A DNA stretch of 64,000 nt from contig OY762069.1 of assembly GCA_963665095.1 (NCBI GenBank), forward strand, positions 1,216,001-1,280,000, in the 5' to 3' direction. Within the stretch, counting starts at the first letter, position 1. Each line of letters begins with the position of its first letter. The notes beneath the pieces were generated by a model, which saw only the letters and a program-made list of their open reading frames with translations, searched no databases and had not been told where the DNA came from. This document shows positions 22,976 through 59,164 of the stretch, piece after piece. The DNA is from an uncultured Desulfobacter sp. Lineage in GTDB: Bacteria > Desulfobacterota > Desulfobacteria > Desulfobacterales > Desulfobacteraceae. The position numbers were made by a program, and so were the translations under genes.

Positions 22976-23051
22976 GGGCCATTAGCTCAATTGGTAGAGC
23001 AACTGACTCTTAATCAGTAGGTCCAAGGTTCGATCCCTTGATGGCCCACCA
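22976..23051 (+). tRNA. tRNA-Lys (anticodon CTT)
   Basis: 76 nt GGGCCAT...ATGGCCC ACCA; D arm AGCTCAATTGGTAGAGC; anticodon arm ACTGA-CTCTTAA-TCAGT; T loop GGTTCGATCC. Confidence 0.97.
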
Positions 23052-23063
23052 CCGAAAATAAAG
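23007..23063 (+). repeat. attL core (3' half of tRNA-Lys plus 12 bp)
   Basis: CTCTTAATCAG...CCACCACCGAAAATAAAG identical to 59108-59164. Confidence 0.95.
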
Positions 23064-23096
23064 CCGATCCGCTTCAAATAAGCATTTCGGCTTTTT
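23060..23096 (+). terminator. Element-supplied terminator for the reconstituted tRNA
   Basis: AAAGCCGA...TCGGCTTT stem followed by a T run. Confidence 0.55.
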
Positions 23097-23142
23097 ACTT
23101 TCCTGGACCGTATCCCGGCATAAATCGGCATATCCGGACCGA

Positions 23143-23175
23143 TTTACAACACGTTGTTGTAACTCTTGTTGTAAA
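23143..23175. repeat. Putative integrase arm-type sites, left end
   Basis: TTGTTGTAAC (23154-23163), TTGTTGTAAA (23166-23175), inverted TTTACAACA (23143-23151); same motif and 12-bp spacing near attR. Confidence 0.75.
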
Positions 23176-23189
23176 AAATTTGCCGAAAT

Positions 23190-26100
23190 TTATGTCCTGG
23201 CACGCTCTCTTTTACTGGGCCGAAATGCCATTTTAATTCTATTCTTAATTGTCCTTTCCGTGATCAGGGGAACAACATCATCCAGCCTGTTGCTTTTTAC
23301 CCTGGCATTAAATCTCTGGATATCCATAATGATATCCCGCCATTCAGACGGATCCTTTTTTGAAACAGGCAGAGCATGATAATGAATAATCCGACTATAG
23401 AGCATACGCTTTCTTTCTGTATACTGGCGCTTCAGGGTTGTTTCGTTCCACTGGATCTCTCTGGGCTTTGCAATCTTGGTTGGATTCATGCCGGCAGCCC
23501 GCATGAGCCCGGTTCCCAGATCCCCTTTGATCTGCTCATTACCAAAGAAAACAGGGTCACCGGCCCTTGTTGTCACACCCTTGGTGGCTTCCCGATAAGC
23601 CTTTGCCACATTACCCATGGCAAGCGGAGTAATTTTTTCAATCCCTTTCAGGTAATCACCATGGGTGATATTCTCTGCGCCCTGGTAGATATTGCGCATC
23701 ATCCCGCCGATTGGGCCAAGTGCGTCCAGGGGTTCTTCAAAATCCGGCAGGCCTGGTGCAAGGGAACCTTTCAAAGAGACGCCGGCCAGGCCCGGCAGTC
23801 CGTAGCGGGCAATATCCTCGCCCGTTTCCCCGAATAATTGTTCTGCAAGTTGATATATTTTTTCTTCCGGGTCATCCTCTCTCATGGCTTTGAAAATCAA
23901 TTTTACAGCCGGCAAAAGAATGGAGCTTGCGGCGCCACCGAAAACCATGGGGGAGAGCATCATATATGCGGCTGCCCCGGCCTGCTTCCGGCCGATCATA
24001 TAAGACAATGTGGTAAAGTAATTGTGAATGAAGGTTTGAAAAATATACATGGCCGAAGCGGCCCGCAGCCCCCGGCCCTTTCTCAGTAACGCCGGCTGAT
24101 TTTCAACACCATAAATCCCATGAGCACGGTCTGACACTTTTTTTGCTTTCATCAGGGCTTCTTCTTTGTTCATTCCAGGATTTTCAGCAATGATACCTTT
24201 ATATGCAGCCAGGATGGTCACCCCGCGGTTAAATTCTTCCGTAATTTTGAACGGTGTCATCAATAATTCAACCGCCCTCCCATACTTCTGGGCCGGGCCG
24301 GATTTAAGGGCGTTAACGGTCTCCATATTCAGCTGGGCCGCAACCCATCCCCTGGAGAAGATATCCTCAAGGACGGCACGATCCGCCTTTGAAACCACCC
24401 CTTTGCCCGTAACAAAGGAAGCATATGTTTTCCCAGCCTTTACAACATGCTGGACAGTCCGCTGCAAAGGGATCCCGCCATAGGCATCCATTGCCGCCGG
24501 CACCGTGGTCCCCAGGGCAGTTAGGTTGATTGCAGCAGAAGACAGGCGCCCTCCTAAAAACCAGACAGATGCAAGGCCCTTGAGAGTGTTAATCACCCGG
24601 TCCCCGGCCTCATCATTCTTGAGGACGTTTTCAACGGCGTTCACAACATCGGTATAAGCCCGTTTCTGCCGTTTAGGGTCAATCATGTGGGTTTGGATGT
24701 ATTCACGGTATTCACGGTGAATGTTGCCTCTTAACCGGGCAATTTCCTGATGGGCATCTGCAGCTTGCTTATCATCTTTCCACTTCCGAATTTTTTCTTT
24801 TTCCCTGAACAGGGTACCGATCCTGAAAAGACGGTCTTGTCTGGATTTTTCAGATTCGGTCTTCACCCCTGCCCGTTCCCGTTGCAGTTGTTTTATTTCC
24901 CGGTCAATTTCGGCAATTCTTTCCTCTTCGGTCCTGGAATTCCTCTGAAGGTTTTTTAAATGATCTTCTGCAGCTGTCAGGGTCTCATAGTCCTTGTGCT
25001 GTTTCTGCCATTCATCCCAGGAGTAGTGCTGGCCAGTAATGGCTTTTGATGTATTCAAGGCAACCTGCTGTTTTGCAAAACCGCCGGCTGCTGAATTCAC
25101 TGCCTGGGCAATGGCCTTCAGCGGATCCGTCTCGTATCCAATCGGGACATCTTTTCCCACGGCATCAGACCGGGATATCATCCGTGCCCGGCTGCCCCTT
25201 GCACGCAATGTGTCAGCCAGTTGATTGACCAGGCTCTGGGCAATTTCAAAGGAGACATCGGTTTCCTGACCCCTGGCAGCATAAAGAGCATTGGTCACAA
25301 TTTCTTCTATATCTTTCGGGGCATTTTCAAACCAGTACCCAGGGGACCATGAATTCCCGCTGCGCCCTTTATCAGAATACTCACGGCCGCCAAGTTTCTC
25401 CAAGACCGATGCAGACCATTCATAGACACCGCCATTAGGCATGTAATAGCTGTCACCTCTCCACCTGCCTCTTAACCCAAGGTCTGCAAGATTTCGGGTC
25501 TTCACATCCATTTTGGTTTCGGATAAGGCTTGGTTCACCATGGCTTGGGTGGACAGGATGTTCTTGATATTTTGGTAAACATCTTCCGACATGCTACCGA
25601 CTTTTTTCACTTCGACCTCATACCCCAGGGCTTTCATTTTGCCGGCAAGGAAATCAGCCGTTTTTTTAAAGTCACGGTACTCAATGACATCGTGCTCCCC
25701 GTCTTTTTTTGAATATACCCGCCAATCGCCATTGGACCGTTGCCTGGGGAAATAATAGGAGGAGCGTTCGCCCATCTTGGCCAAAGCCACCTTCAAATCA
25801 ATCCTGACTTCGCCTGATTTTGTCCGGATCACGACGTCAGGAAGGGTCAGCCCCCGGGCCTCATATTCTTTAATGATGGATTCCCAGGACTCTGCATAGA
25901 AGTCATGCAGGTTGGCTGTCATGTTCCTGAATGCCCTCAGTGCATCGCGGCCTGCCGGGTTATCATACTCATCAACTTCATAATTTATGGACCAGGTCCT
26001 GGCTTCGGCTTTGGATCGAAACCCGGATTTCAAAAGCTTACGCTTCCCTGTTCTCTCATCCTTGGCGGAATAGACTTTCCACTCTCCTGGTTCGCCCTCC

Positions 26101-29100
26101 ATAACCAGGTTCCCGATCTGGTAAATATCTCGATCAACCAGATACTCTTTAAGTTCGGAGTATGTGGCTTTATCATGCTTCTGCAAATCCTCAATCGTGC
26201 CAATCATGGATTCTTCGCCATTTTTAAACAGCTCGTTTTCTTTTTGGAATTTCCATTCCGGCCGCTTCAGCAACTCTTCAAATGCCAGCTTCAAAGCAGG
26301 GATCTTTTCAGAGTAATGGGACATCAGACCCAGGACATTTTCAACAACACCGATATCCTCTTTATAGTCCGGGCCCATGTTCTTTCTGTTTTCCAAGACG
26401 CCTTTAAGCCCGGCTGCAATCTGGCTGTACGTTTTCTTTTTTTCACCTTCAGTTGGTGTGAGGATGTCCTGAGACGTTTGGTAAAGGGCCTCGTCGGAAT
26501 CTAAAGCTCTCATCCCGTTTACGTTCGGTGCAGGCAGCTGGTTGGTGTCACGCATACTGATCAACCGGCCGAAGGGGTTTGTTGTTATGATGTCATTCAC
26601 GCTTATGCCCTGAGTAGTTAGGCCTTCCGCCAGGCGTTCGTACAATTTATTTCGGTTCGTGTTGGCAAAGGTCTGCATGTTAATAACTGCCTGGACAGCA
26701 TTGACTCCTGAGGCCTTGGTCAAGATATCCCTGGCGGCCTCCCGGATTGTTTCTCCCTTTTTAAAAGGGATGAACACCACTTCTCTGTGCCCTTCATCCG
26801 TCAATAGGATTCCGTCCTGCTCTCCTTCGAACCGCTCCATTGCCGCCCATGCGTCCTTAATGCTGATCGGATTTTGCGGCTCCCTGGAAAGAATACGCCT
26901 TTCACTGACAGGAACTGTGCTTTTGGCTGGCAGTTGTTTTATTTTTTGAGCACCACCGACATGGTATTCATCGAACTCCAAGTATCTGCCGTCAGAGATA
27001 ACCAAACCATTGACGTTGATTCCGGCAAGCCTAAGGCCTAAACGGAGATCTCGCATAATGAGGCGGTCCTCGTCCGACGGTGCCAAATTTCCTGAAATGT
27101 GATTGTGAACCAGATAGGCTGCATGTGCAGATTTATTTTCCAGCAGATGCCCTGACAGTTGGTTGATATGAGCATCTGCCTTTCCGGACGATCCTTTGGA
27201 GAATTTATGGACCTCTAATACTTTTCCCGCTTTATCTGCTGTGAGGAGATAGACTTCTTCTTGAGCTGCTTCAGAAAGGCCAGATAGCATTTGTGCCGCA
27301 TCGGACACGTTGCGAACGGTTCTCCTTGGCACTCGGAGTTCTCCGGTTTCTCGCATTCCGATTCGTGCAAATCTGGGAACAGGTGTTTGTGTCTGTGTTC
27401 CACTTTTAACAACCCCTTTGGATAGATCTTTGTCGAGATCAATTATTTCAATAGAATCGTTGGCTTGATCTGGCTTCCGTTCGAAAGCTTTCCCAGATTC
27501 AATTTCCTTGGCCAATTTTCGTGAAGATGATTTCCCAATATACCGAAGCCCGTCCAGGAAATCCATAATCTTCTGGATAATCCTGTTGAAAACGGATTTA
27601 TCGCGGTACGCCTCCCGGTCTGCAATTATCTGGGCCAGGGTGTTGGCCCGGTCCTCTTCAGGCGTATTCAGGAGTTCATATCGATATTTATTCTCCTTAA
27701 TCAGTTTCGACCTGTGGACATCCAGGGAGAGTTCTTCGCTGCGGGTGACAATACCAAGATCCGTTAGCAGATGATACACCTCATGGGTAAGGGTCTGGCC
27801 GTCAGCAAGGTTCTGGTTCAGGGTAATGATTTGGTTCTTATATTTCCCCAGGATGACACCGCCTTCATCCATCCGGCCGATTTCCATGGCATACCGGATA
27901 TCATTGCCGCCAATGTGCTCAACGGCTTTTATCCGGCAGCCCTGGCCGTTTTTAAACCGCACTGATATGGATCCGTCAGGTGACAGGTTGACGAACTGTC
28001 CCTTGAAAAAATTTTGGATATCTTTCAAGGAAATCCCTTGGCCGAGCCTGGTGTCAATCTGGAACTTTTTCTTGACGGAATCAGATTTTGATTTTATATT
28101 AGATCCTGAGGGGTCACCCCCTCTTAAAGGCTCGCCCCCCGCGGCTTCTATCCGCGGTAAATTGCGAGCCTTTTTTATTTTCAACAACAAATCCGTGTCG
28201 TGATTGATGTTGTAATAAAAGTTGCCGTGCCTATCTTCCCCGATTGTTACCCCTGCTTGGTAAAGATTGTCCCCTATTTGAACATTTGCTGAGATATGAT
28301 GATAACGATAAACGTCCTTTTTTTTGCTTGAGAATTGACCGGGTTCGATAGCCCCATGTTTGATAATGTCAGGGATAGCCGGGATCAATTTGGCCTTAAT
28401 GGGATCACTTTTTAATCCGCGCTTAGTTTTGTCCCATCCGGTGCCTGTGATTCGGACAGGTCCCAATCCTTCCCGGACAACAGTCTTGACCTTTCTCTGC
28501 AGTTCTTCTCGAAAATATTTTTTTGCGGACTGGAAAAGCTCTTCCGGTGTCGCCCCTTTAATTTCTTCTCCAGAGAGTACGGCAACTGGTTTGGATTTCA
28601 AGTCATCGGATGTGGAATAAACAGCTTCTCCAGAATTTATATAAGCAATTTCTTTGACATCCGATTCATTTAAAATGATTTCCTTAAACTGACCGTTGAT
28701 ATTCGCAACCATTACAGGAGAGTGTTTATTAAGATCCCGCAAGCTTCGGGCCAACTCTATAAAAAATTCTGTTCTTTCGGTTTTACTGCCATCCTTGTTG
28801 TAAGGGATAAAGACTGTGGCGTTGGTTTGATCCATGGCTTCAAGGACTTCAGCGGCCACTTCCCGCTTTGATGTACCGGGAAGAAACTCCAGATACCCGA
28901 CTTCGTTCAACTGATTATCAGCAAGGATAAACCCGGACTCTTTGTCTTTTAAGACCTGGCTAACTGTATCTGGCGTGACCTTCACCCCTCGCTTTGAAGC
29001 TTTAAAGACCCGCTCCTTAACGGGGATAGAAACGCTTTTCTCTCCATCTAAAACAGAGTTATCCTGTGACAATGGACCAAACGCGTCAAACTTCCCCCAA

Positions 29101-30836
29101 ACGGGTTTATTGGATTGATCCCTGCCTATGATAAGATTTGAGGTCTCGATATCGCGAAGCTTGAGTGCGTCACCAATACGCCTTACAAGAGGAGTATCTG
29201 CATTGGCGGAAGGGGCAGTGCTGCCAGCCGGGTGGTTATGGACAAAATACACCTTCTGGATGCCTTTATTCGAAAAAATTTTGCCAACTAACTCCCCAGG
29301 CGCAACCGTGGCGCTGCTTATCCCGCCTTTTGAATAGGCGTGAACCTCAACAACTTGGTTTTTATCATCAACCGCTACGGTATAAGCGGTTTCATGAGGA
29401 GAATGTGCCAGATGGGATAAAAGAGAGGCGGCATCTTCATCAGAAGAAACGTTTAATCCACGATGCTGAATATTGCCTGTAGTTCTGACGCCAGTTCTGC
29501 TCTTTGCTGCCAGTCGTTTGGAGAAACCTTTTCCAGCTGCTGTCTGACCCGCTCCGCCTGTTTCTCCCTTTGGCTGTGAAAGAACCTTTCCGGACTCGGA
29601 TAGGTGGAACAGCTCAAGGTTGTCTTTTTCTGCTTTGTTCTCATTGGAAAACCCCTTTTTGGATTCTTCAATTATATCTTTTTTTTGTGTTTTTTCAAGG
29701 GTCTCTTGGTTATCTTTATCGGTTTTTTCTTCGAAATCATCTATTTTCACCGTGCTGTTTTTTGCCGAATCCGAATTTTTATTTGCTTTCCCCTTCAATG
29801 GAATCTGATGCATCTTTCCGTCCCGGGTTGAAACTGTCAGGGTATCAAACGTAATTTCCTTTCCAGCAAATCTTTTATCCCCAATATATTTTTTACCCTG
29901 GCCAGGCTTCACATAGGCAATGGTGGCATGTGGAGAGTAATCATAAGTTTGATCTGCAGGCAGAGAGATATCCGCTTCTTTCTCAATTTTTTTATTCAGG
30001 GCACGAAGTGCAGGGCTATCCACATCAACCTTGACCACGTCAAATTTATCATCTTCAAAGATGGAGACATCGCTCATTTTGACAGTGATAGGGGGGTGGG
30101 CTTCAATGATTTTGGCAATGTCGGACGGATCATTTGTTTTCAGGCCATATTTAACGGTAATGTGGGGAGCATCCTCCCGGCCGTACGAATCGTCCTGCGG
30201 ATCCGTGTAAAGGTCTTCATCAGGAATTTTTGAAGCAAAAGTCCGGATCTCTTCGGACTCTTTTGCCGGGAAATCAACCTGGGTGCTTGAATGATCGTGA
30301 ACAAATCCACCTGCTTTATCTTCAACCCCTTCCGTCGGAGCATCCTTTGTCTCAGTTGTTAAGGAATCCTTTACAACTGGCTCTTTTTTTTCTGAAGAGA
30401 TTTTGTCAACGGTTTTGTCGTTTTCTTTAACCGGGCTTAGGCCTTTATTATCAATGGTCTCAAGAGAACCTTCCGCTGTTTTGTCGGTCCTTTTGTCACT
30501 TTTATTTTCTTCCGAGCCTGGTACAAATTCGGTTTTTCCGGATTTCTGGGAGGAAGAAGGAATCTCCGTGTCAAGTTCTGTACCGGCAATATCAGATGCA
30601 AACCGGCCGGCATCAGCATCTGACATCGGGGGAGGTTCATATGCCGGTGGTTGTTCCTGCATGCCGGGAGCATCAGTCTGGGCCTGCTGATTCTGTGCAC
30701 CCTGCGGCTGCACAATCCCCCATGCAAGGATTTTAACAACACCCACAGCCACACCCGTGAACAGGCACAGCAAAGCAAAGATAAATATGGATATTCCCGC
30801 GATCTTTCCGATTTTCCACCAGTTCAAATTCTTCAA
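23190..30836 (-). CDS. 2548-aa phage polyvalent protein: TM N-terminus, 2H phosphoesterase, JAB x2, LPD3-like, HExxH metallopeptidase, PLxRFG-like C-terminal region
   Basis: TTG start with GGAGG RBS; PHIT (H225) and PHAT (H303); HNHPAG...PS..D (aa 533) and HNHISG...PS..D (aa 1244); THEVYH (aa 1018); YFPRQR..G (~aa 1694). Confidence 0.85.
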   Translation of the reverse strand: MKNLNWWKIGKIAGISIFIFALLCLFTGVAVGVVKILAWGIVQPQGAQNQQAQTDAPGMQEQPPAYEPPPMSDADAGRFASDIAGTELDTEIPSSSQKSGKTEFVPGSEENKSDKRTDKTAEGSLETIDNKGLSPVKENDKTVDKISSEKKEPVVKDSLTTETKDAPTEGVEDKAGGFVHDHSSTQVDFPAKESEEIRTFASKIPDEDLYTDPQDDSYGREDAPHITVKYGLKTNDPSDIAKIIEAHPPITVKMSDVSIFEDDKFDVVKVDVDSPALRALNKKIEKEADISLPADQTYDYSPHATIAYVKPGQGKKYIGDKRFAGKEITFDTLTVSTRDGKMHQIPLKGKANKNSDSAKNSTVKIDDFEEKTDKDNQETLEKTQKKDIIEESKKGFSNENKAEKDNLELFHLSESGKVLSQPKGETGGAGQTAAGKGFSKRLAAKSRTGVRTTGNIQHRGLNVSSDEDAASLLSHLAHSPHETAYTVAVDDKNQVVEVHAYSKGGISSATVAPGELVGKIFSNKGIQKVYFVHNHPAGSTAPSANADTPLVRRIGDALKLRDIETSNLIIGRDQSNKPVWGKFDAFGPLSQDNSVLDGEKSVSIPVKERVFKASKRGVKVTPDTVSQVLKDKESGFILADNQLNEVGYLEFLPGTSKREVAAEVLEAMDQTNATVFIPYNKDGSKTERTEFFIELARSLRDLNKHSPVMVANINGQFKEIILNESDVKEIAYINSGEAVYSTSDDLKSKPVAVLSGEEIKGATPEELFQSAKKYFREELQRKVKTVVREGLGPVRITGTGWDKTKRGLKSDPIKAKLIPAIPDIIKHGAIEPGQFSSKKKDVYRYHHISANVQIGDNLYQAGVTIGEDRHGNFYYNINHDTDLLLKIKKARNLPRIEAAGGEPLRGGDPSGSNIKSKSDSVKKKFQIDTRLGQGISLKDIQNFFKGQFVNLSPDGSISVRFKNGQGCRIKAVEHIGGNDIRYAMEIGRMDEGGVILGKYKNQIITLNQNLADGQTLTHEVYHLLTDLGIVTRSEELSLDVHRSKLIKENKYRYELLNTPEEDRANTLAQIIADREAYRDKSVFNRIIQKIMDFLDGLRYIGKSSSRKLAKEIESGKAFERKPDQANDSIEIIDLDKDLSKGVVKSGTQTQTPVPRFARIGMRETGELRVPRRTVRNVSDAAQMLSGLSEAAQEEVYLLTADKAGKVLEVHKFSKGSSGKADAHINQLSGHLLENKSAHAAYLVHNHISGNLAPSDEDRLIMRDLRLGLRLAGINVNGLVISDGRYLEFDEYHVGGAQKIKQLPAKSTVPVSERRILSREPQNPISIKDAWAAMERFEGEQDGILLTDEGHREVVFIPFKKGETIREAARDILTKASGVNAVQAVINMQTFANTNRNKLYERLAEGLTTQGISVNDIITTNPFGRLISMRDTNQLPAPNVNGMRALDSDEALYQTSQDILTPTEGEKKKTYSQIAAGLKGVLENRKNMGPDYKEDIGVVENVLGLMSHYSEKIPALKLAFEELLKRPEWKFQKENELFKNGEESMIGTIEDLQKHDKATYSELKEYLVDRDIYQIGNLVMEGEPGEWKVYSAKDERTGKRKLLKSGFRSKAEARTWSINYEVDEYDNPAGRDALRAFRNMTANLHDFYAESWESIIKEYEARGLTLPDVVIRTKSGEVRIDLKVALAKMGERSSYYFPRQRSNGDWRVYSKKDGEHDVIEYRDFKKTADFLAGKMKALGYEVEVKKVGSMSEDVYQNIKNILSTQAMVNQALSETKMDVKTRNLADLGLRGRWRGDSYYMPNGGVYEWSASVLEKLGGREYSDKGRSGNSWSPGYWFENAPKDIEEIVTNALYAARGQETDVSFEIAQSLVNQLADTLRARGSRARMISRSDAVGKDVPIGYETDPLKAIAQAVNSAAGGFAKQQVALNTSKAITGQHYSWDEWQKQHKDYETLTAAEDHLKNLQRNSRTEEERIAEIDREIKQLQRERAGVKTESEKSRQDRLFRIGTLFREKEKIRKWKDDKQAADAHQEIARLRGNIHREYREYIQTHMIDPKRQKRAYTDVVNAVENVLKNDEAGDRVINTLKGLASVWFLGGRLSSAAINLTALGTTVPAAMDAYGGIPLQRTVQHVVKAGKTYASFVTGKGVVSKADRAVLEDIFSRGWVAAQLNMETVNALKSGPAQKYGRAVELLMTPFKITEEFNRGVTILAAYKGIIAENPGMNKEEALMKAKKVSDRAHGIYGVENQPALLRKGRGLRAASAMYIFQTFIHNYFTTLSYMIGRKQAGAAAYMMLSPMVFGGAASSILLPAVKLIFKAMREDDPEEKIYQLAEQLFGETGEDIARYGLPGLAGVSLKGSLAPGLPDFEEPLDALGPIGGMMRNIYQGAENITHGDYLKGIEKITPLAMGNVAKAYREATKGVTTRAGDPVFFGNEQIKGDLGTGLMRAAGMNPTKIAKPREIQWNETTLKRQYTERKRMLYSRIIHYHALPVSKKDPSEWRDIIMDIQRFNARVKSNRLDDVVPLITERTIKNRIKMAFRPSKRERART

Positions 30837-30845
30837 TCCTGCCTC

Positions 30846-31568
30846 CTAATCCTCCAAGTTAAAAGCCGAACCACCCTGGGTGGTTTCCAGCCAAGGGCGT
30901 TGGGTTAAAATTGTGTGAACCATCCCGCCCAGCAGCCCCACCACCGGGAAGTCCTCATACTTTCCGTTTTCAGCATCTTCCTGGCGGATGGCCTGGGCAT
31001 AGGATGAAAGATTCTGGTGACCGTTTACATCCAGATAGACGGGGCTCCGGAGCTGTGGATTCCGGGCCCGGAACAACTGCCGGATATACAGGGGGAAAGA
31101 ATGTTTCTCTCCGAAGTCAACCGGCGGCTTTATGTAAATTCCCTGGCCCTCACCGTGTTTTTCCTCAAGCTTAACGCTGGTTCTGGACACCAGGGGCTGA
31201 AACCGGTCAGGGTCTCCTATCCACCATGGCAGGATCCGGGAGTCCTTTCCAAAACCATACTTGACCCGCAGCCGAAGTAAGATCTGAAACAGCGCAAAGA
31301 CTTCTTTCTCTTCAGCGGCTTCCAATATCTTGAAAACAGGCAGCCCATTAACCATGACAATACCAATAACGATAACAATACCGGCAGATGAAACAGACGG
31401 ATAGGCGATCCCGCCAATGATATCGCTATACCGTTCAGCGGCTTCCATGTTCCAGAACACTGGATTTTTCAGGGTAAAATCCTGGCCGTAAACCGTGGCC
31501 CAGTCCTTCCGGGCCTGCTCGGTATGTTCCATATGGTGATCTTGTTCAACGCGGATGACACATTCCAT
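30846..31568 (-). CDS. Phage protein coupled to terL, possibly a degenerate RNase H-like fold
   Basis: Start overlaps terL stop; beta-rich IIGGIAYP...GIVIVIG...FKILEA segment; fold is inference. Confidence 0.6.
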   Translation of the reverse strand: MECVIRVEQDHHMEHTEQARKDWATVYGQDFTLKNPVFWNMEAAERYSDIIGGIAYPSVSSAGIVIVIGIVMVNGLPVFKILEAAEEKEVFALFQILLRLRVKYGFGKDSRILPWWIGDPDRFQPLVSRTSVKLEEKHGEGQGIYIKPPVDFGEKHSFPLYIRQLFRARNPQLRSPVYLDVNGHQNLSSYAQAIRQEDAENGKYEDFPVVGLLGGMVHTILTQRPWLETTQGGSAFNLED

Positions 31569-33193
31569 TAGAACAGTCCTCCAAAGAAACCAGTCGGTGC
31601 AAAAGTGAGAATGACTGACTCCAGTTCATCCGGAGAATGCTGAAGAAGTTTTTTCATATCGGGCTTTCGCATGATCCGGACCTTGCCATCATCCGTGTTA
31701 TAAGTGGGAATAAGTGCCTGTTCAATAAGCCGTTCATCAGGTGGAAGCATAGCTGTATCATCAGTACGAAGCCATTCCCTGAATGCCCAGTAAAGCTGGT
31801 CCCGAAGAATGCCAAACTCACCCATTTCAGTCTTTTCTGTGGGTGAGTTGGCAACTTTTATTGAATGGGCAATGACTGCATCCTCAGCATCCATCATACC
31901 TTGAGCCACCCCGGCCCCGACGCCGGTACCGTCCACATTAGCATGGGTTAGATTACCGGTTTTTATGTAGTCGGCAGCCGCCTTTCTGGCTGTTACTGTG
32001 GGATCTACTCCCTCCCATTTTTTCAGGGGTGGAACAAATCCTCCATACCGTCTGGCAGCACAGTTTTTATCCAGGCCCTGCTCAGCAACATCCAAACCCA
32101 TAACCCCCACAGCTCCCTTAGGAGGAGCCTCACCGAACTGTGCAACATACTGGTCATACCTCAGCCGTGCCCGGTCCACCCACTCGGCAGAAATTAACTG
32201 TTCTTCGGATTGTGCAGGATATCGTCCCAGAACCATGTATGAAAAAGCGGGATTGATTATCTTATATGTCCCGGCCTGCAAAGGCGGATATAATCGATTA
32301 TCCCCAGTTCGCTTAGCCTGGGCTCCAACAAGAAAATCTGGCAGCTCATAACAGGAATACTCTGAATAAGTCTCGTCCGGAGCTAAAGGACGGGTCCATT
32401 CATTTATTCGGCGGACCGTAACTGCCCTGGATACGGCGCCGGGGATGATGTCTTTGCCTGTCAAGACGTTGGGATGGTTAAACGCTGTCAAAGACACTAT
32501 ATTCGCGGTTTTGTCCCGCTCCATCCGGTGAGGAGTCCCAGCCGCTGCCCTGGGATTGAACATAATCAACATTCGGACATGCCCACCGGTCATGCATGAT
32601 TCAGTGCCTTTGTATACTTCATCTGGGATAGCATCCCCTTCATCAAAGATAAAAAGCATGTACGGTGCATGCTTGCCTGAAAACTTGGCTTCCCTTTCCG
32701 CTGGTGTGCCGGATGAAGGAATTGCAACCCCCTTCATAAACTCCAAAGAATTACGTTTGACTTCCAGATTTTTTACAGTGTCCCCTACGGTCAATTGTGG
32801 ATAGTTGTAAATCAGATATCCGATTTCTCCCCACAACAGTGTCTGAAGATTCTCCTTAGGCGGGGCGGCAGCCGTATAGACCTGGGCCCCGGGAAAGCAC
32901 TTGTAAAACCAAAAAGCCACTCTGGCCGCGGCATGAGTTTTTCCTGTAGCATTGGCAGACTTGGCAATAGTGATGACGTTATCTCTGACAGAATTCATCA
33001 TTGCCTGGACATCATCAGTGAAAGCTTCTCCCAGCTCATCAACGCAAAAACCATGAGGATCTTGCTGATAAGCCAAAAGCGCTGGATCAACACCGGGATT
33101 ATCCAGGCGCGATAACACTGTTTCTGGATCAAACAGAGAAAGGATCGAATCAACGATCTCTGGCTGATATGTCTCGAAAACGGCATTATTCAT
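31568..33193 (-). CDS. terL: Terminase large subunit
   Basis: Walker A SANATGKT, FSGKHA, Walker B FIFDEG, MFNP, nuclease motif MGLDVAEQGLD, VDGTGVGAGV, HSPD. Confidence 0.88.
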   Translation of the reverse strand: MNNAVFETYQPEIVDSILSLFDPETVLSRLDNPGVDPALLAYQQDPHGFCVDELGEAFTDDVQAMMNSVRDNVITIAKSANATGKTHAAARVAFWFYKCFPGAQVYTAAAPPKENLQTLLWGEIGYLIYNYPQLTVGDTVKNLEVKRNSLEFMKGVAIPSSGTPAEREAKFSGKHAPYMLFIFDEGDAIPDEVYKGTESCMTGGHVRMLIMFNPRAAAGTPHRMERDKTANIVSLTAFNHPNVLTGKDIIPGAVSRAVTVRRINEWTRPLAPDETYSEYSCYELPDFLVGAQAKRTGDNRLYPPLQAGTYKIINPAFSYMVLGRYPAQSEEQLISAEWVDRARLRYDQYVAQFGEAPPKGAVGVMGLDVAEQGLDKNCAARRYGGFVPPLKKWEGVDPTVTARKAAADYIKTGNLTHANVDGTGVGAGVAQGMMDAEDAVIAHSIKVANSPTEKTEMGEFGILRDQLYWAFREWLRTDDTAMLPPDERLIEQALIPTYNTDDGKVRIMRKPDMKKLLQHSPDELESVILTFAPTGFFGGLF

Positions 33194-33851
33194 CGTCTTG
33201 ACTCTTCACTGTCTGGGAGATTTTCTCTCTAAGGGCTTCCCTTACTGGTTCGGGAAGGGCTCGAAGGATTTCATCTAAAGCAGATTCCCTGCGCTGAAGG
33301 TTGTCTTTTTCAAAAAGGCCCTGATACTTAGCCAGAGCTTCCCTTGCAGAATCGCCCTTGTCCCATTTTATAGTTACAAGGGATTCTTCGGTTGTCTCAA
33401 TTCCGTCTTCACCATCCTCCAGGTCCACCTTTCGAATTTTGGTGTCCAGGCGATGGACCTTTATTTCGGTTACCGCAGCAGCCGTATCGCGGTTCATTCG
33501 GTGCAAAGGTTTGATATTCCCATCTGCATTGATAAGGCTTCTCGGATCAAAGTAAGCCCTTCTTGCAAAAGCTCGTAGTGTCCGCTCTGGCGTAATTTCC
33601 AGCTTCTCCGCTATCTCGGCTTTCCTTTTGTCTAAATAGGCTATAACCTTAACATTTCTTAACAATCTTGCTGCAGCAGAAGCGGCTGTGGAATCTTTTA
33701 CAACATTGGGGTAGGCTACTTTGTAGGCACGGGTCCCATTGAAATCAATGAGGTATTCCTCACAAAAGAGAATTCGCTTATCGGTAAGACCCTTCGCCAT
33801 TATTTTCGTTTCCGTTTGAGGATCCGCCACCAACGCTCGATCTTCCGGCAA
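33186..33851 (-). CDS. terS: Terminase small subunit (start may be ATG at 33800)
   Basis: LTDKRILFCEEYLIDFNGTRAY...AARLL..V.V; immediately upstream of terL. Confidence 0.85.
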   Translation of the reverse strand: MPEDRALVADPQTETKIMAKGLTDKRILFCEEYLIDFNGTRAYKVAYPNVVKDSTAASAAARLLRNVKVIAYLDKRKAEIAEKLEITPERTLRAFARRAYFDPRSLINADGNIKPLHRMNRDTAAAVTEIKVHRLDTKIRKVDLEDGEDGIETTEESLVTIKWDKGDSAREALAKYQGLFEKDNLQRRESALDEILRALPEPVREALREKISQTVKSQDDE

Positions 33852-33893
33852 AGCTGCGGCGTGAAGTTAACCGTCAAAGAGAGCTTAAACTCC

Positions 33894-34196
33894 TTAAACG
33901 GCAGACGTTTCAGTGGATTTCTCATCGTCAACCACTACGTCCCGGTCGCTGTCACTTATGCTTGAAACCTTACGCACAGATGTGGCAAGGATGCCGATAG
34001 CAAAATCGTCCAGCTTATTGCTGGTTTTGGCGGCCTCAATCTCTGCACGGTCGAGCAAATCCTCAATGAAATTCTTCAATTCATCCCCGGTAAGCGCTGC
34101 GCAAACCGCAGTCAGCACCGTGGTCAAACCAGTTACCGCCACGTTTTTAACTGCAGTGGTGGTGGCCTCTGAAATCGCGTCTGTTAATGTGCTCAT
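33894..34196 (-). CDS. Phage hypothetical protein, possibly holin-associated
   Basis: AAGGA RBS; KTSNKLDD motif; late operon position. Confidence 0.55.
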   Translation of the reverse strand: MSTLTDAISEATTTAVKNVAVTGLTTVLTAVCAALTGDELKNFIEDLLDRAEIEAAKTSNKLDDFAIGILATSVRKVSSISDSDRDVVVDDEKSTETSAV

Positions 34197-38872: not shown

Positions 38873-39574
38873 TTAATTATTCGCAAAAACCGGGATTCCG
38901 GTTAACTTCTGTATTTCTTCAACAAAAAAACCGGGATCTCCGTTGTCGCCACTGATGTGGATTAAATGGATTTCCCGGCATTGTGACAGGTCGTTTGCCC
39001 TGATAAACGCCTTTACATTCTCAAGGCTAAAATGACTCTTTTTAATGCGGTTTCTGTGGGATGGGTGGATTGTCCCGTTTTCAATATTTTCATCCAGCAA
39101 ATCGTCTGAATAATTGCATTCAAGCATAAAATGGGTGACACCCTTAAACGCAAAGCGACTGTAATATGTGTCCGTGATGTAAAGGATCTTCCCGGTGGCC
39201 GATTGAATCAGAAACCCATGATTTTCGACATCGTGCTGGAGTGGAAAGGGCAGGACTGTAAATGCCCCAACCTTGAATTGTTCTTTTCCTTTGAAATTCT
39301 TTACACGGTGACCGGATAGGCCTGGGATTTCCGCCTGGGTTGTTTCCGACATCCAGACGTCCACCCCGGCCTTGGTCATATCCACAGCAGCCTTGCAGTG
39401 GTCTTTGTGGGAGTGTGAAATAAGACACCCGGAAATCCCGGATAACTGGAAATCGAAAGCCTGCCGGATCTTCCGGAAACTGATGCCGCATTCAATCATT
39501 AAGACGTTTGCACCGTCTGTGATTTGGTAACAGTTACCGGTAGATCCGGAGGCATGGGTGGCGATGGATATCAT
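38873..39574 (-). CDS. MBL-fold metallohydrolase (phage exonuclease, YycJ-like)
   Basis: SGSTGNCY, ISHSHKDH, HDV, YITDT, ECNY, LIHIS. Confidence 0.85.
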   Translation of the reverse strand: MISIATHASGSTGNCYQITDGANVLMIECGISFRKIRQAFDFQLSGISGCLISHSHKDHCKAAVDMTKAGVDVWMSETTQAEIPGLSGHRVKNFKGKEQFKVGAFTVLPFPLQHDVENHGFLIQSATGKILYITDTYYSRFAFKGVTHFMLECNYSDDLLDENIENGTIHPSHRNRIKKSHFSLENVKAFIRANDLSQCREIHLIHISGDNGDPGFFVEEIQKLTGIPVFANN

Positions 39575-42825: not shown

Positions 42826-43491
42826 TTATGAATTAATTTCTTCCAGGGTCTCATCCTCAAGAAGCGCCTGGTCATCGGTGTCATCCACAGGCGCCGCCGG
42901 AACACTGTCAGGAGAAAACATCTCCTGCTGATACTGGATGGGTTTTAAATGTCCGGTCAGGTCTGACAGCCATTGCAAAATCTGAGGGACATAGACGTGC
43001 CCCCAAAGAGGAGTGATGCGCACGGTTATAAATTCCCGATGTAGAGCATCCAGGCACATAAAAAGCTGTTCAATCAGGTACACCTTCTCCAGGACTGCCC
43101 CCTCAATTTCATCGGGCGCATTGGATGTCTCCATTGTTGGGGCCTTGTGGATCTTCACCGCCAGGTCATCACTGGTGATGGAAAAAGAATATCCATTCTC
43201 ACCAATGGAAAGATCGAAGCATATTTCCTTGATCCGGCCACCGTCAGAAATGGCAATGGCAGCGGACTTATGGCCGGTCTCTTCGCTCTTGATGGTAATT
43301 TTTGACTTTGGCTTCTCGCTCTCAATCACGATGCCGCCGGCAAAATCAACGGATACTTTTTCGTTGGGGCAGACCGAATTGTTAACGGTGTCCGGAGTGA
43401 TCTCCGACGCCCACCACAACCACAAAAGGAATTCTCCACCCAGAAAGGAATACTTGGCAAAAGCCGTTGCAATATCAATACTCATGCACAC
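42826..43491 (-). CDS. Partner of RdgC-like protein
   Basis: FLGGEFLLWLWW motif; overlaps the upstream RdgC-like gene. Confidence 0.65.
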   Translation of the reverse strand: MCMSIDIATAFAKYSFLGGEFLLWLWWASEITPDTVNNSVCPNEKVSVDFAGGIVIESEKPKSKITIKSEETGHKSAAIAISDGGRIKEICFDLSIGENGYSFSITSDDLAVKIHKAPTMETSNAPDEIEGAVLEKVYLIEQLFMCLDALHREFITVRITPLWGHVYVPQILQWLSDLTGHLKPIQYQQEMFSPDSVPAAPVDDTDDQALLEDETLEEINS

Positions 43492-44102
43492 CTCCCTATA
43501 GCCATTGGTGCGGCCTGTGCTACACTATCAATCAGGCCGGCATTGTCCCTGGCAGCCAGGGTGTAAGGAAAAAGCCGATGGATTTTGATTCCAAAGGACT
43601 TCAGGAAAAGGGTTTCAAAAAGTTCATTCGCAGAGTTCTGTGTTGAAAAAAACATGATTGTCTTTCCCTCATAGTCCCATACGATTTCATAGATTGTCGG
43701 GACGAAAGGGACCTGCTTGAAAAGCTTATCCATGACAAGCTCTTTGAGCTCTGCACGCTCTCCCTTTGAAAGAAATTCGCGGTCAACTTCAGCCAGTTTT
43801 TTCTGGACTGCAATGTCCAGTTGTTCGGCCAGGGCCTTGGCCGGGATTGTCTTTTTATCCACTCGCATAGAGAAGACAAAATACACACCAAAAACAAAGC
43901 CGTGTTTTTCAAAATCCGGGTTATACGGCCCCTCAAAGGGCACCCACCCGACAACGATTTCATCATACTCGTTTTTCTCCACAGGCATCTTGCCCTGGAC
44001 AAGGCCTCTGCGGACATGCTCTGCCACGCCGGCGTCCAGGTCCACCGGGCAGTCCGGCACATGATACCGGACAACCGCCTGTGATGTTGATAATAGCGCC
44101 AT
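43482..44102 (-). CDS. RdgC-like recombination-associated protein
   Basis: MALLS....VRY.V, GWVPFE, FSMRVDKK.IP, LSKGER.ELKE, FETLF..SFG. Confidence 0.7.
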   Translation of the reverse strand: MALLSTSQAVVRYHVPDCPVDLDAGVAEHVRRGLVQGKMPVEKNEYDEIVVGWVPFEGPYNPDFEKHGFVFGVYFVFSMRVDKKTIPAKALAEQLDIAVQKKLAEVDREFLSKGERAELKELVMDKLFKQVPFVPTIYEIVWDYEGKTIMFFSTQNSANELFETLFLKSFGIKIHRLFPYTLAARDNAGLIDSVAQAAPMAIGRCA

Positions 44103-46586: not shown

Positions 46587-46724
46587 TGAGAATGATCACA
46601 AAAAATCATGGAAAAATTAAAGATAATTTGCAAGATATGCCAGGGATGAGGCAGAAGCTCCCCCGTTTATCTCGCAAATAATCAATGGAACTTCTGCCCC
46701 TATTACCCTAACAGGGCAGGAGAT

Positions 46725-47300
46725 ATGCTATCAGAACTTATTAAAAACAAAAATCTTTTTTTCCATCTTTACGAAATCGATAAAAATACAGCAAAACAGT
46801 ACAGACAGTTGCCTTGTCCGCATTGTGGAGGCCCCTTATATTTCAGCAATTACATGCGCAAGCCCCGGGGAGAGCCTGAGGGCGTGCCGGAGGAATTCTT
46901 TATTCAGTTCAGCCTATGTTGTGGAACCGAAGGGTGTCGCAAAAGATTGATGCCGCCGTCCTGCCGTTTTCTGGGGAGAAAAGTCTACTGGTTTGCAGTT
47001 ATTCTGTGTGTTTTAACAGACTGGCAAAATACCAATGAAAAAATCACCGTTTATGATTTGTCCATACGAACTGGCATTAGCCGGAACACAATAAACCGCT
47101 GGCTTGCCTTTTTTCAGGATACATTTCCAGTGAGCCGAACCTGGCGAAGGCTTCGGGGGCAGATATCCGCTGGTGTCAGTAACAGCCGTCTGCCGTCAAG
47201 TTTCATCAATTATTGCCGGGCGGTGAAATCCAACGCCGAAAACGCACTTGTATCAAGCCTGATAATCTTATCAGGCGGGTCCAAAATCAGGGCCGGATAA
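46725..47300 (+). CDS. Zn-ribbon plus HTH transposon accessory protein (DUF6431-like)
   Basis: CPHCGG, CC...CRKR..PPS.RFLGR.VY, GISRNTINRW. Confidence 0.7.
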   Translation: MLSELIKNKNLFFHLYEIDKNTAKQYRQLPCPHCGGPLYFSNYMRKPRGEPEGVPEEFFIQFSLCCGTEGCRKRLMPPSCRFLGRKVYWFAVILCVLTDWQNTNEKITVYDLSIRTGISRNTINRWLAFFQDTFPVSRTWRRLRGQISAGVSNSRLPSSFINYCRAVKSNAENALVSSLIILSGGSKIRAG

Positions 47301-47406
47301 TCTCGCGCAGAGGATGAACATAGACAAATATATGCAGGCTGTTTTACCACCTGATTTCAGACGTTGATCCGAAATTTTAACCTGAAATTAAAAAGGAGCC
47401 TGATTT

Positions 47407-48852
47407 ATGAGTGGTAAAACACAGCACCCGGCAGACCTGTGGGCATTATTTCGCTTTTCGGTTATCGGCGGTTTACTGGCACGCCCTCCGGCAAAGGGAG
47501 AGTTGCAAAATGAACTGACCCGGCTCGCAGGTCAAATCTATTCTCATCCTGTGACGAACAAACCGACCTGTTTTCATTTTTCCACAATTGAGGCCTGGTA
47601 TTACAGGGCAAAAAATTGCCAGGACCCAATTCTGGCTCTGGGCCGTAAAGTTCGTTCAGATATGGGCAAATCCACAGCATTGAATGCTGAATTGATCCGC
47701 CTTCTTGGTGTCCAGTACAACACTTATCCGCAATGGAGCTATCAGCTTCATTGCGACAACCTGGCAGCTGAAATCGCTGAACAGGGCCTGTGTGAGAATC
47801 CGCCGTCCTATGCAAGTGTGAGAAGGCGTATGGTTGAACGGGGTTGGAGAAAAAAGGCTTCCAAGAACAAAAATCAAACATCCGGACAGAAATCAGCTTT
47901 TAAGCGATTAGAAACGTATGAAGTCCGTAGTTATGAAACCGAAAACATCCATGAATTATGGCATCTGGACTTTCACGAATGCAGCAGGCGCGTGGTGGAC
48001 GAAAAAGGTCAGTGGCATACGCCCAAGGCATTGTGCATTCTTGATGATCGCTCCCGTCTGTGTTGTCATATTCAATGGTATTTGAATGAAACGGCAGAGG
48101 TTTTGATCCACGGCTTGTCCCAGGCGTTTTACAAAAGAGGGCTTCCCAGAGCCTTGATGACAGATAATGGTTCTGCCATGATTGCTCATGAAACCGGCAA
48201 CGGACTTAAACGATTGGGCGTCAGTCATGAGACCACGTTGCCATACTCGCCCTATCAAAATGGGAAGCAGGAAGCCTTTTGGGGTACACTTGAAGGCCGT
48301 TTGATCGCCATGCTGAGCCGGATGGATTCTTTGACCCTGGTATATTTAAATCAGGTCTCCCAGGCCTGGATCGAGATGGAATACAACAAGTCAACCCATG
48401 ATGAAATTCATATGTCGCCATTGCAATGCGCCCTTGACGGCAAGGATGTGTCACGTCCTGCACCGGAACCTGAACAGCTTCAATTTTCGTTTACAGCCTG
48501 TGAATCCAGAAAACAGCGTCTGTCCGATGGTACCATCTCTTTGATGGGCATCCGGTTTGAAATCCCTTCACGGTTTAATCATATCCAGCGTCTTCATGTC
48601 TGTTTTTGCTCCTGGGATAAATCGGTTGCCTGGCTGATAGATAAACGAACCGGAAATAAGCTTGCCGCAATTTATCCCCAGGACAAGACAAAGAATGCTT
48701 CAGCAATCCGTCGTATCAAATCCACTCCGGATGAAATTAACCCTGGCCATGAAACCCTGTCCGGATCAGAACCGGCCCTGCTTAAAAAGCTCTTGTCCGA
48801 TTATGCAGCAACCGGAATGCCTTGTGCCTACTTGCCAATGGAGGAAAAGTGA
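47407..48852 (+). CDS. DDE transposase (rve core, Mu-like C-terminus)
   Basis: LWHLDFH, ILDDRSR, LMTDNGSA, PYSPYQNGKQE, DGTISL.G.RFEIP. Confidence 0.9.
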   Translation: MSGKTQHPADLWALFRFSVIGGLLARPPAKGELQNELTRLAGQIYSHPVTNKPTCFHFSTIEAWYYRAKNCQDPILALGRKVRSDMGKSTALNAELIRLLGVQYNTYPQWSYQLHCDNLAAEIAEQGLCENPPSYASVRRRMVERGWRKKASKNKNQTSGQKSAFKRLETYEVRSYETENIHELWHLDFHECSRRVVDEKGQWHTPKALCILDDRSRLCCHIQWYLNETAEVLIHGLSQAFYKRGLPRALMTDNGSAMIAHETGNGLKRLGVSHETTLPYSPYQNGKQEAFWGTLEGRLIAMLSRMDSLTLVYLNQVSQAWIEMEYNKSTHDEIHMSPLQCALDGKDVSRPAPEPEQLQFSFTACESRKQRLSDGTISLMGIRFEIPSRFNHIQRLHVCFCSWDKSVAWLIDKRTGNKLAAIYPQDKTKNASAIRRIKSTPDEINPGHETLSGSEPALLKKLLSDYAATGMPCAYLPMEEK

Positions 48853-49676
48853 TGAACAGCAAACGATTATTGGCTTATTATGGATTGAAGTACAATCCTT
48901 TTTTACCAAATATTCCTGTGGACTCATTATGGCATCCACCCCGGATGGAGGCATTTATTACACGCCTTGAAAATATGACCATGAACGGTGGATTTGCATT
49001 AATCGCCGGTGAACCCGGTCTTGGCAAATCCAAGACACTACAGGCGATTGCCCATCAGCTTGGCAAGCTTGATGAAGTCGTTGTCGGCGTTATGGAGCGC
49101 CCCCAAAGCAGCGTGGCCGATTTCTATCGGGAAATGGGGACACTGTTTGGTGTCAATTTGAGTCCGGCCAACCGTTACGGAGGGTTCAAAGATCTGCGGC
49201 AACGATGGAAAAATCATATTAAAACAACCCTGTTCAGACCCGTCCTGCTCATTGATGAGGCTCAGGAAATGCTTACCGGATGCCTGAATGAGCTTCGGTT
49301 GCTCAACAGTATGGATTTTGACTCCCAGAATTTATTGACCACCATTATCTGTGGTGATACCCGGCTGCCGGAACGGTTCAGAACCAGTGCATTGGTAGCC
49401 CTGGGGAGTCGACTCCGGTTCCGGTTAAAATTGGATCCTTATACCCGGGAAGAATTGTTGGATTATATAGCGCATTGCCTAAATCAGGCCGGAGCTCCTC
49501 AACTCATGACAAAACCTTTAATCACCGCTTTGGTAGAGCACTGTACAGGAAACTTACGGGTCCTCAATAATATGTCGGCAGAACTGCTTGAAGTGGGCGT
49601 TCAAAGAGAGCTGCCGCAACTGGATGAGAAACTTTTCATAGAGCTTTTTTCACTGAAACCGTCGCCAACCAGATAA
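48852..49676 (+). CDS. ExeA/TniB-like AAA ATPase
   Basis: YGLKYNPF, GEPGLGKS, LLIDEAQEM, GNLR; ATG overlaps the transposase TGA. Confidence 0.88.
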   Translation: MNSKRLLAYYGLKYNPFLPNIPVDSLWHPPRMEAFITRLENMTMNGGFALIAGEPGLGKSKTLQAIAHQLGKLDEVVVGVMERPQSSVADFYREMGTLFGVNLSPANRYGGFKDLRQRWKNHIKTTLFRPVLLIDEAQEMLTGCLNELRLLNSMDFDSQNLLTTIICGDTRLPERFRTSALVALGSRLRFRLKLDPYTREELLDYIAHCLNQAGAPQLMTKPLITALVEHCTGNLRVLNNMSAELLEVGVQRELPQLDEKLFIELFSLKPSPTR

Positions 49677-49687
49677 GAGGTATAAAA

Positions 49688-49930
49688 ATGACAATCAATG
49701 AAACACAACTTGAAAAAACAATGGCTGAAATTGTCGACGAGCTGGGCAATCTGGTCATGGAGTTGATCCTTGTCAGTTTAAAAAAAATAAACTCGGAAAA
49801 TCATCTTTTGACAGAATTGCTGGAGATCAAACAAGAGGAACAAAGAGAAAATGAATTTTATGGTTTTGGTGAAACGGAGCCGGGACATCCTGGGGAGGAA
49901 ACCCGGCAAGGGATAGCCAAAAGCAGGTAG
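49688..49930 (+). CDS. Small acidic protein, last gene of the transposon
   Basis: GAGG RBS; followed by a hairpin at 49948-49977. Confidence 0.55.
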   Translation: MTINETQLEKTMAEIVDELGNLVMELILVSLKKINSENHLLTELLEIKQEEQRENEFYGFGETEPGHPGEETRQGIAKSR

Positions 49931-50200
49931 CATTGAATAATGCGCCGGGGGAAGCGGGGTTGACCTGCTTCCCCTTTCTGTATTATTCAAGCTTTCCTGC
50001 TCATGCCTTAAAAAACCCAATAAAATCAGTCGGAGCGCAGCGACATCTGCTAATCATTGAAAATACAGTTATGCCTTTCCCTGATTTATCCTGATTGTCG
50101 CTCCATTGATTATCGTGCTTCCTCTCAATAACATCAATCACCCGGCTGCCACGGGTGGCCGGGGTATCATTATAAAAAACAATCAATCAACGAAAGCCCT

Positions 50201-51384: not shown

Positions 51385-51672
51385 ATGGGTGAGCTTATGC
51401 AATTACCATGCTCTATTCCTGAAAAATTTTCCTCAAGCGGAGGTGGAGGCAATATGGAAGCAAGAGTTGCAAAACTTGAATCGGATGTTGAGCATATCAA
51501 AACCGACGCATCCGATATTAAAACAGACATCCGGGATCTCGCAAAAGAATTGAGATCAGACATTCGGGATATGAGAAAAGACCACAGATCTGATTTCAGA
51601 ATCCTTATTGGCTTCCATATAACCACCTTGGTTTGCCTTATTGGATTGCTGGTTAAAATTTTCGGGAAATAA
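51385..51672 (+). CDS. Coiled-coil protein with C-terminal TM helix (DUF1640-like)
   Basis: MEARVAKLESDV..IK.D...IK.DIR.L heptads plus hydrophobic tail. Confidence 0.65.
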   Translation: MGELMQLPCSIPEKFSSSGGGGNMEARVAKLESDVEHIKTDASDIKTDIRDLAKELRSDIRDMRKDHRSDFRILIGFHITTLVCLIGLLVKIFGK

Positions 51673-51770
51673 ATAGTTCAACCCGTGGCGTGAAAAAAGC
51701 TCCGCAGCATTAAAATTGAAAAGACAATAATCCCCTTGCCACACCCCCGCCGCATAAAGACTGTTCACAC

Positions 51771-51799
51771 TTGACAAATACGTCTCCAGGGCGTATAAA
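51771..51799 (+). promoter_or_regulatory. sigma70 promoter of the RelE/HigA pair, probably leaderless
   Basis: TTGACA, 17 bp, TATAAA; ATG 5 bp downstream. Confidence 0.6.
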
Positions 51800-51804
51800 A
51801 TACC

Positions 51805-52068
51805 ATGAACAAAATAATCCTGAATAAAAAAGCACAAAAGCAACTCAGAAAAGTACCAGCACACATCCAGGGTAAACTTCAGGGCTGGATTGAAGCAGTT
51901 GAAGCTTTCGGGATTGAAGAAATCAGGCTGATACCCGGATACCATGACGAACCTTTAAAAGGCCGGAGAACCGGGCAAAGATCTATACGGCTTTCAAAAG
52001 CCTACCGGGCGATATATATCGACAACACCATTATTGAAATCATAGAGGTGAATAAACATGACTACTGA
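51805..52068 (+). CDS. RelE/HigB-family toxin
   Basis: GYHDEPLKGRRTGQRSIRLSKAYRAIY...EVNKHDY. Confidence 0.85.
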   Translation: MNKIILNKKAQKQLRKVPAHIQGKLQGWIEAVEAFGIEEIRLIPGYHDEPLKGRRTGQRSIRLSKAYRAIYIDNTIIEIIEVNKHDY

Positions 52069-52360: not shown

Positions 52361-52405
52361 ACAAACACTGCCAGGGAAACCCTGATCGTTATTAATTCTC
52401 ACCCC

Positions 52406-52434
52406 TTGAAAATGGTGGCATAAATTGCTACCAT
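52406..52434 (+). promoter_or_regulatory. hicAB promoter with overlapping palindromic operator
   Basis: TTGAAA, 17 bp, TACCAT; ATGGTGGCA / TGCTACCAT inverted repeat. Confidence 0.6.
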
Positions 52435-52440
52435 ATACCA

Positions 52441-59067: not shown

Positions 59068-59107
59068 TCGCCCGAAGAGCCGTATAAAATGGCCACTCGG
59101 CAAACTG

Positions 59108-59164
59108 CTCTTAATCAGTAGGTCCAAGGTTCGATCCCTTGATGGCCCACCACCGAAAATAAAG
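59108..59164 (+). repeat. attR core (duplicated tRNA-Lys 3' half)
   Basis: 57-bp identity with 23007-23063. Confidence 0.95.

Follow-up and report, generated by a model that had tools for sequence, protein, structure and literature searches.

A truncated polyvalent protein of a defective Desulfobacter prophage joins a 2H phosphoesterase domain to two RadC-type JAB cassettes with probably separate targets

Can a single phage protein destroy the signal of a cyclic oligonucleotide-based anti-phage signalling system (CBASS) and also undo the ubiquitin-like conjugation that primes it? This question is raised by a polyvalent protein gene in a stretch of 64,000 nucleotides from an uncultured Desulfobacter sp. 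(contig OY762069.1, positions 1,216,001 to 1,280,000; referred to here as the window), for which an initial annotation proposed such a double attack by an Acb1-like 2H phosphoesterase and two JAB domains at 27000..30300. The motifs named in that annotation were indeed found in one chain, although the minus-strand open reading frame (ORF, 23190-30836) extends past this span on both sides (Table 1). We consider it probable that the protein is a giant ejection-type protein of a temperate phage whose cargo cassettes act on separate targets. The interest of the locus rests on a lead to the function of RadC and on a large 2H clade, not on the dual anti-CBASS claim.

By its sequence content the ORF is a phage-type polyvalent protein in which several unrelated enzyme domains, an LPD domain and an HExxH peptidase share one chain. 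When the separate domains were compared with Pfam, scores far above chance were obtained for the 2H domain (2_5_RNA_ligase2, 44.7 bits; cut-off 27), for both JABs (RadC, 61.8 and 62.4 bits; cut-off 22.1) and for LPD3, whose match (59 bits, nt 28212-28538) agrees with the LPD3-like segment annotated at about 28190-28590. The annotated THEVYH lies in the same chain at aa 1017; HExxH is kept in 29 of 30 matched stretches of this metallopeptidase region, and the Pfam search of 27447..28046 returned no match. The protein class is already known, as are 2H and RadC within it: both are listed as polyvalent domains in PMC5512222, where 2H is predicted to degrade signals and RadC to process nucleic acids. 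The window protein resembles the phage-type proteins of that paper as the product of a giant late gene with an HExxH peptidase, LPD3, 2H and RadC-type JAB. It differs in combining RadC with 2H in the phage type, whereas one passage of the paper restricts RadC to the conjugative type and another mentions prophages, and in having a dead partner domain and a clamp motif, which the available portion of that paper does not describe.

In the explanation that we favour, the metallopeptidase and the C-terminal PLxRFG domain would form the constant scaffold of a giant late-operon protein, on which cargo cassettes directed at different targets can be exchanged. The giant of the intact phage is probably packaged and injected, as proposed for the phi24B ejection protein gp47, a 2811-aa LPD-bearing protein which is found in virions and carries other cargo. 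After injection its HExxH peptidase would probably split it into separate units, as suggested by the family literature (PMC5512222).

The two HxT motifs annotated 78 aa apart were recovered as PHITVKY (starting at aa 224, nt 30167) and PHATIAY (aa 302, nt 29933), and they supply the HxT/HxT tetrad of Acb1 (H225/T227 and H303/T305). As in Acb1 (T4 gp57B and FBB1, 7T26) and PDE-9 (9Q2G), a Tyr follows each motif. PDE-9 was the best PDB sequence match of the 2H domain, with an E-value of 0.013 for the single sequence and 3.6e-9 for the profile; this phage enzyme cleaves 3'3'-cGAMP, is grouped with T4 Acb1 (10.1101/2025.08.21.671373) and is reported to be active without its C-terminal lid. The pattern YxPHxTxxY occurs in all 83 family rows and in all 36 Acb1 sequences, whereas in 23 of 23 LigT sequences this motif ends in Arg. 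Among the Acb1 pocket residues named in PMC9117128 (Y12, W74, F107, E141 and W147), the aromatic character of W74 is kept by F260 (F in 82 of 83 rows). We therefore lean, by a small measure, towards a 2H cassette that removes nucleotide alarm signals, which would be small cyclic or linear molecules hydrolysed by a metal-free HxT/HxT mechanism; that its substrate is the CBASS signal falls a little short of an even chance in our judgement. The signal-degrading role in the initial annotation is plausible to this extent, and it had already been put forward in PMC5512222, where polyvalent 2H domains were proposed to be RNases or degraders of defence nucleotides.

A number of observations weigh against a signal-degrading role and towards a LigT/Usb1-like enzyme that processes RNA ends or 2',3'-cyclic phosphates, or that acts as an RNase, the other option of PMC5512222. 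With the Pfam Acb1 model (PF23474, gathering cut-off 27) the window domain reached 14.5 bits, far below its score on 2_5_RNA_ligase2, and it scored 19.8 bits on LigT against 8.1 on Acb1. The family aligned with the LigT profile over 144 columns (P 97, E 3e-11) and with T4-type Acb1 over only 77 (P 93, E 3e-7), a plant CPDase outranked FBB1 Acb1 in the PDB profile search, and phylogenetic trees do not separate an Acb1 from a LigT placement. In the pocket, F107 aligns to T297 (H, Y or F in 74 of 83 rows), while Y12, E141 and the lid residue W147 have no equivalent, the terminal alignment being weak; unlike Acb1 and PDE-9, the domain is a unit of about 170 aa inside a giant. In addition, two structural groups of viral 2H enzymes were reported to cleave none of 18 messengers. 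On the other hand, where LigT has an Arg behind its second HxT, all 83 family rows have a Tyr, the LigT/ThpR model TIGR02258 gave 27.1 bits against a cut-off of 65.7, and the family is said never to be associated with RNA ligases (PMC5512222). The shallow Acb1 profile set (Neff 2.0, against 4.8 for LigT) favours LigT in these comparisons, and 53 of the 83 family rows nevertheless score higher on Acb1 than on LigT. The Pfam Acb1 cut-off was passed by two of seven other homologues with a listed score, four of which had been chosen because they were labelled Acb1 beforehand. The RNA-directed role appears somewhat unlikely to us. The comparison of Acb1 with LigT proposed in the initial annotation was thus split between a best PDB match to PDE-9 and a better profile match to LigT; judging from these alignments, the domain may act in an Acb1-like manner, yet we do not file it as Acb1.

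This 2H clade is large. It includes 116 of 119 listed giants, and 476 of 600 pattern matches were found in viral contigs. It was also found at 72 distinct viral loci, of which 40 lie in frames of at least 1000 aa. We found no assay of the clade in the literature. It bears on whether phages import a signal nuclease together with the genome, ahead of any gene expression. In one viral contig (L072:8603-11296) a member of the clade is fused with a portal domain on one side and a MuF-like domain on the other, a second route of virion delivery that is also described in PMC5512222.

Both JABs belong with RadC by sequence and by predicted fold and are far from Cap3, as the caveat in the initial annotation had anticipated. 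They exceed the PF04002 cut-off, show the RadC-type fold in the predicted models and possess HNH motifs (aa 533 in JAB1 and aa 1244 in JAB2) with the Glu, His, His, Ser and Asp ligands, each of which is conserved in 134-135 of 135 family modules. The annotated PS..D form needs one correction, as the Ser and the Asp of JAB1 are separated by three residues, one extra before the Asp; in the 135 aligned modules this spacing is two residues in 130, three in two (the window JAB1 and a near-identical allele) and four in three. Cap3 and BilC deconjugases share the JAB fold and zinc motif, but comparison of the window JABs with the host Cap3 gave 3.5 bits and an alignment P of 0.9, and the closest fold of the JAB models was not that of Cap3. 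The Prok-JAB model matched JAB1 with 14.2 bits (cut-off 25) and JAB2 not at all, and PADLOC holds no CBASS JAB model.

These placements bear directly on the double attack, in which the 2H domain would destroy the signal and the JABs would strip Cap2-type or Bil-type conjugates. The metal ligands are present, JAB1 has a faint match to BilC (E 0.0058, 14.2 bits), an allele swap of JAB2 described below suggests changing targets, and overexpressed Cap3 counteracts CBASS, so that a phage mimic of Cap3 is workable in principle (10.1101/2022.03.31.486616). The host genome also contains two CBASS loci, one of them with Cap2 and Cap3. However, RadC JABs are argued to be without the groove for a ubiquitin tail (PMC5512222), Cap3 is reported to be sequence-specific for the C-terminus of its substrate, and a clamp motif in the family points to DNA. 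Moreover, the two domain types show no coupling among relatives: 2H was found in 3 of 108 JAB giants, JAB in 8 of 116 2H giants (the latter with a query that included JAB1), and no JAB was found within the fetched flanks of the 72 viral 2H loci. We regard the double attack as very improbable, and the part of the initial annotation in which the JABs undo ubiquitin-like priming is not upheld. The case is a warning that domains may be carried in the same polyvalent chain without acting on a common target.

Both host CBASS loci are interrupted by insertion sequences (IS). The first (G000:C1, about 6065000-6077000; L099:3165-14891) has the order cyclase, Cap2, IS, Cap3 and HNH/SAVED and is split by another IS. 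The second (G000:C1, 1845000-1849400; L098:7098-11368) consists of a patatin, a cyclase shortened beside a transposase, and an E2.

What the JABs might do instead is suggested by the cassettes in which they occur. In a homologue search of 1.84 billion representatives, from which the best 150 of 1800 matches were counted, the JAB cassette recurs among the matches listed as a conserved stretch of about 260-300 aa, and a second domain lies downstream of the JAB in 131 of the 137 JABs with room for one. This partner domain is without HxH in 131 of 135 rows. It aligned with the host RadC with P 89 and E 2.2e-6 (2H controls at most P 0.3) and with the JAB half with P 34 (30 column shuffles at most 2.3); in the predicted model it repeats the helix and strand order of the JAB, and four predicted viral structures match JAB and partner jointly with TM scores of 0.75-0.84. 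An active JAB beside a dead partner is reminiscent of the active and inactive MPN pairs in eukaryotic complexes. Compared with RadC (PF04002; PDB 2QLC), the window JABs have an extra N-terminal strand, the dead RadC copy at the C-terminal side and the upstream clamp motif, they stay below the NCBIfam RadC equivalog cut-offs (97.7 against 180), and one chain carries two divergent cassettes that are 34% identical.

The sliding-clamp motif has the consensus QL[S/D]LF (PMC12309361) and lies about 33 aa upstream of the JAB with a tight spacing (median 33-35 aa). The strict motif was found in 15 of 132 JAB upstream windows and in none of 3936 other windows, and a looser form in 53 of the 132 against 67 of the 3936, with none in 115 windows upstream of 2H and at most 4 in shuffles. 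The motif persists in 36 of 95 clusters at 50% identity and in 5 of 21 at 38%. By giants, the strict motif is present in 14 of 108 with a JAB, adjoining the JAB in all 14, and in none of 108 without one. A phage protein, MuC, is known to use QxDLF for binding the clamp, although MuC is a transcription factor; a Q2A change is tolerated in its motif. The JAB cassettes form a unit of their own that consists of clamp motif, linker, zinc-binding RadC domain and dead RadC copy; it would be tethered to the host beta-clamp, hydrolysing DNA or a DNA-bound protein on or near the incoming or replicating genome. That these cassettes bind to the clamp and work there independently of CBASS is a tentative reading to which we give nearly even weight. 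The fuller version, an exchangeable cassette which combines a clamp motif with an active RadC JAB and a dead RadC and which is injected, docks on the beta-clamp and hydrolyses a substrate on DNA (a lesion, an end, or a DNA-bound defence or repair protein), is possible rather than likely.

Several points count against clamp docking. About 60% of the modules are without even the looser motif, whose pattern was written after the sequences had been seen; the looser motif also occurs in 35 of 108 giants without a JAB, roughly twice the shuffled rate, and some of these motifs may serve the whole giant and not the JAB. The window JAB1 motif is degenerate (NLELF, with N for Q), first-position changes can weaken clamp binding (PMC12309361), and none of seven JAB2-type cassettes has the motif. 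These distributions would also suit cassettes that are peptidases for polyprotein processing or for a non-DNA host protein, with the clamp motif belonging to the giant as a whole, and characterised JABs are peptidases (PMC3239186). Such a role is made unlikely by the restriction of the strict motif to positions adjoining a JAB and by its tight spacing, by the HExxH peptidase already in the protein, and by the fusion of RadC elsewhere to DNA-acting domains. We did not find a cassette of clamp motif, RadC and dead RadC in the literature, the supplements of PMC5512222 being a limit on this statement.

RadC function has been disputed for decades. If clamp docking is true, the cassette would be the first concrete handle on it, and the giants would combine a signal nuclease of Acb1 grade with an enzyme tethered to the replisome. 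As a 280-aa unit that is predicted to be soluble and well folded, that contains its own dead partner beside a clamp motif, and of which swapped alleles occur in nature, it is a direct test object for RadC function.

The polyvalent gene forms the end of a 36-kb element that is bounded by 63-bp repeats at a tRNA-Lys and contains an integrase, recombination and replication genes, terminase subunits and a multi-copy IS. Portal, capsid and tail genes were not found within this element. From residue 463 onward, a database protein of 3006 aa (P0003) aligns to residue 45 onward of the window protein, while its first 462 aa have no match anywhere in the source genome. In the relative G104, a terminase with 70% identity and the same next gene are followed by about 15 kb in which portal, major head and tail-fibre families were matched, and then by a giant that shares the peptidase and C-terminus of the window protein; the giant is likewise encoded beside virion genes in G111. 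Thirteen G104 genes from this virion stretch gave a single 42-aa match in the source genome, located elsewhere, and two portal families gave none. A contig from one sequencing run crosses the junction 30704/30705 without differences, whereas a contig from another run tracks the gene up to 30704, has the 117-nt insertion of P0003 and then diverges. The P0003 alignment, the G104 comparison and these contigs therefore indicate a real deletion by which the virion module was lost and two genes became joined in one reading frame; a small hydrophobic ORF is found in G104 at the position matching the foreign N-terminus. With the virion genes and the first 462 aa deleted, the copy is stranded in the source genome and cannot be packaged by its own phage, so that the co-delivery with DNA suggested in the initial annotation does not apply to it.

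Outside aa 760-1445 the window protein has only 7 mismatches to P0003, but cassette 2 is 45-53% identical to that of P0003 and 79% identical to the cassette of another phage, which indicates a recent swap. Retention of the truncated, membrane-anchored fusion by the host for defence or superinfection exclusion is an explanation that we hold to be highly improbable. The in-frame junction, the open frame of 2548 codons and a ribosome-binding-like sequence ahead of it would fit such a role, and host capture of these proteins has been raised (PMC5512222). Nevertheless, the 99-100% identity to the intact allele outside the swapped part implies that the deletion is too recent for decay to have set in, a third of all deletions preserve the frame, the gene lies in a late operon, and the same query found a 2H match in none of 160 other genomes of the family.

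Table 1. Positions of the annotated features in the window.
Feature	Position	Strand	Remarks
ORF of the polyvalent protein (2548 aa), truncated at the N-terminus and fused	23190..30836	-	Truncation seen in the alignment with P0003
Foreign 44-aa N-terminus, hydrophobic stretch, probably membrane-spanning	30705..30836	-	Remnant of small gene, in-frame join at junction 30704/30705
2H phosphoesterase domain, aa 179-350; H225/T227, H303/T305	29787..30302	-	
Degenerate sliding-clamp-like motif NLELF, aa 406-410	29607..29621	-	QLDLF, QLTLF or QLELF in close relatives
JAB1, RadC-type; E482, H533, H535, S543, D547; one extra residue before Asp	29082..29498	-	
Dead RadC-like partner domain 1, aa 612-715, without metal ligands	28692..29003	-	
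LPD3 domain, aa 767-875	28212..28538	-	Pfam, 59 bits
Zincin-like metallopeptidase region, HEVYH at aa 1018-1022	27447..28046	-	
JAB2, RadC-type; E1193, H1244, H1246, S1254, D1257; allele-swapped cassette without clamp motif	26961..27365	-	
Dead RadC-like partner domain 2, aa 1321-1425	26562..26876	-	
C-terminal PLxRFG domain	23238..24674	-	NF032893, 123 bits (cut-off 100); common to giants of intact relatives
att repeat overlapping 3' part of tRNA-Lys(CTT) 22976-23051	23001..23063	+	
Second att repeat, past tyrosine integrase (57970-59010)	59103..59164	+	
Terminase large (31568-33193) and small (33186-33851) subunits	31568..33851	-	
240-aa gene, function not assigned, without convincing family match	30846..31568	-	After terminase also in intact relative G104 (29% identity)

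Four features go beyond the initial annotation: the protein is truncated and fused at its N-terminus, its JABs are paired with dead JAB-like domains, a clamp-like motif is present, and the virion genes have been lost. In the run X6, one contig matches only 33 bases of the window (31010-31042) with near-identical repeat-like letters on both sides, a pattern that would be expected of a CRISPR spacer directed at the 240-aa gene. A contig of the run X1 (32,586 bases) that matches window 23007-34000 has 8980 bases ahead of the left att, as many as separate the IS from the right att; by this arithmetic it would be an attP-type join, which may reflect excision or an assembly effect induced by the repeat. 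The IS itself (46587-50127, 3.5 kb, with an integrase core and an AAA ATPase) has at least 12 copies elsewhere in the genome, one of them inside a CBASS locus. A gene with a metallo-beta-lactamase fold in the recombination cluster (38873-39574) was not called anti-Pycsar, as its score on the Apyc1 model was 15.1 bits against a cut-off of 50. A gene pair at 42826-44102 encodes products of 221 and 206 aa, of which the 206-aa one matches RdgC weakly, and the small prophage genes at 51385-53030 are presumably RelE/HigA-like and HicA/HicB-like toxin-antitoxin pairs.
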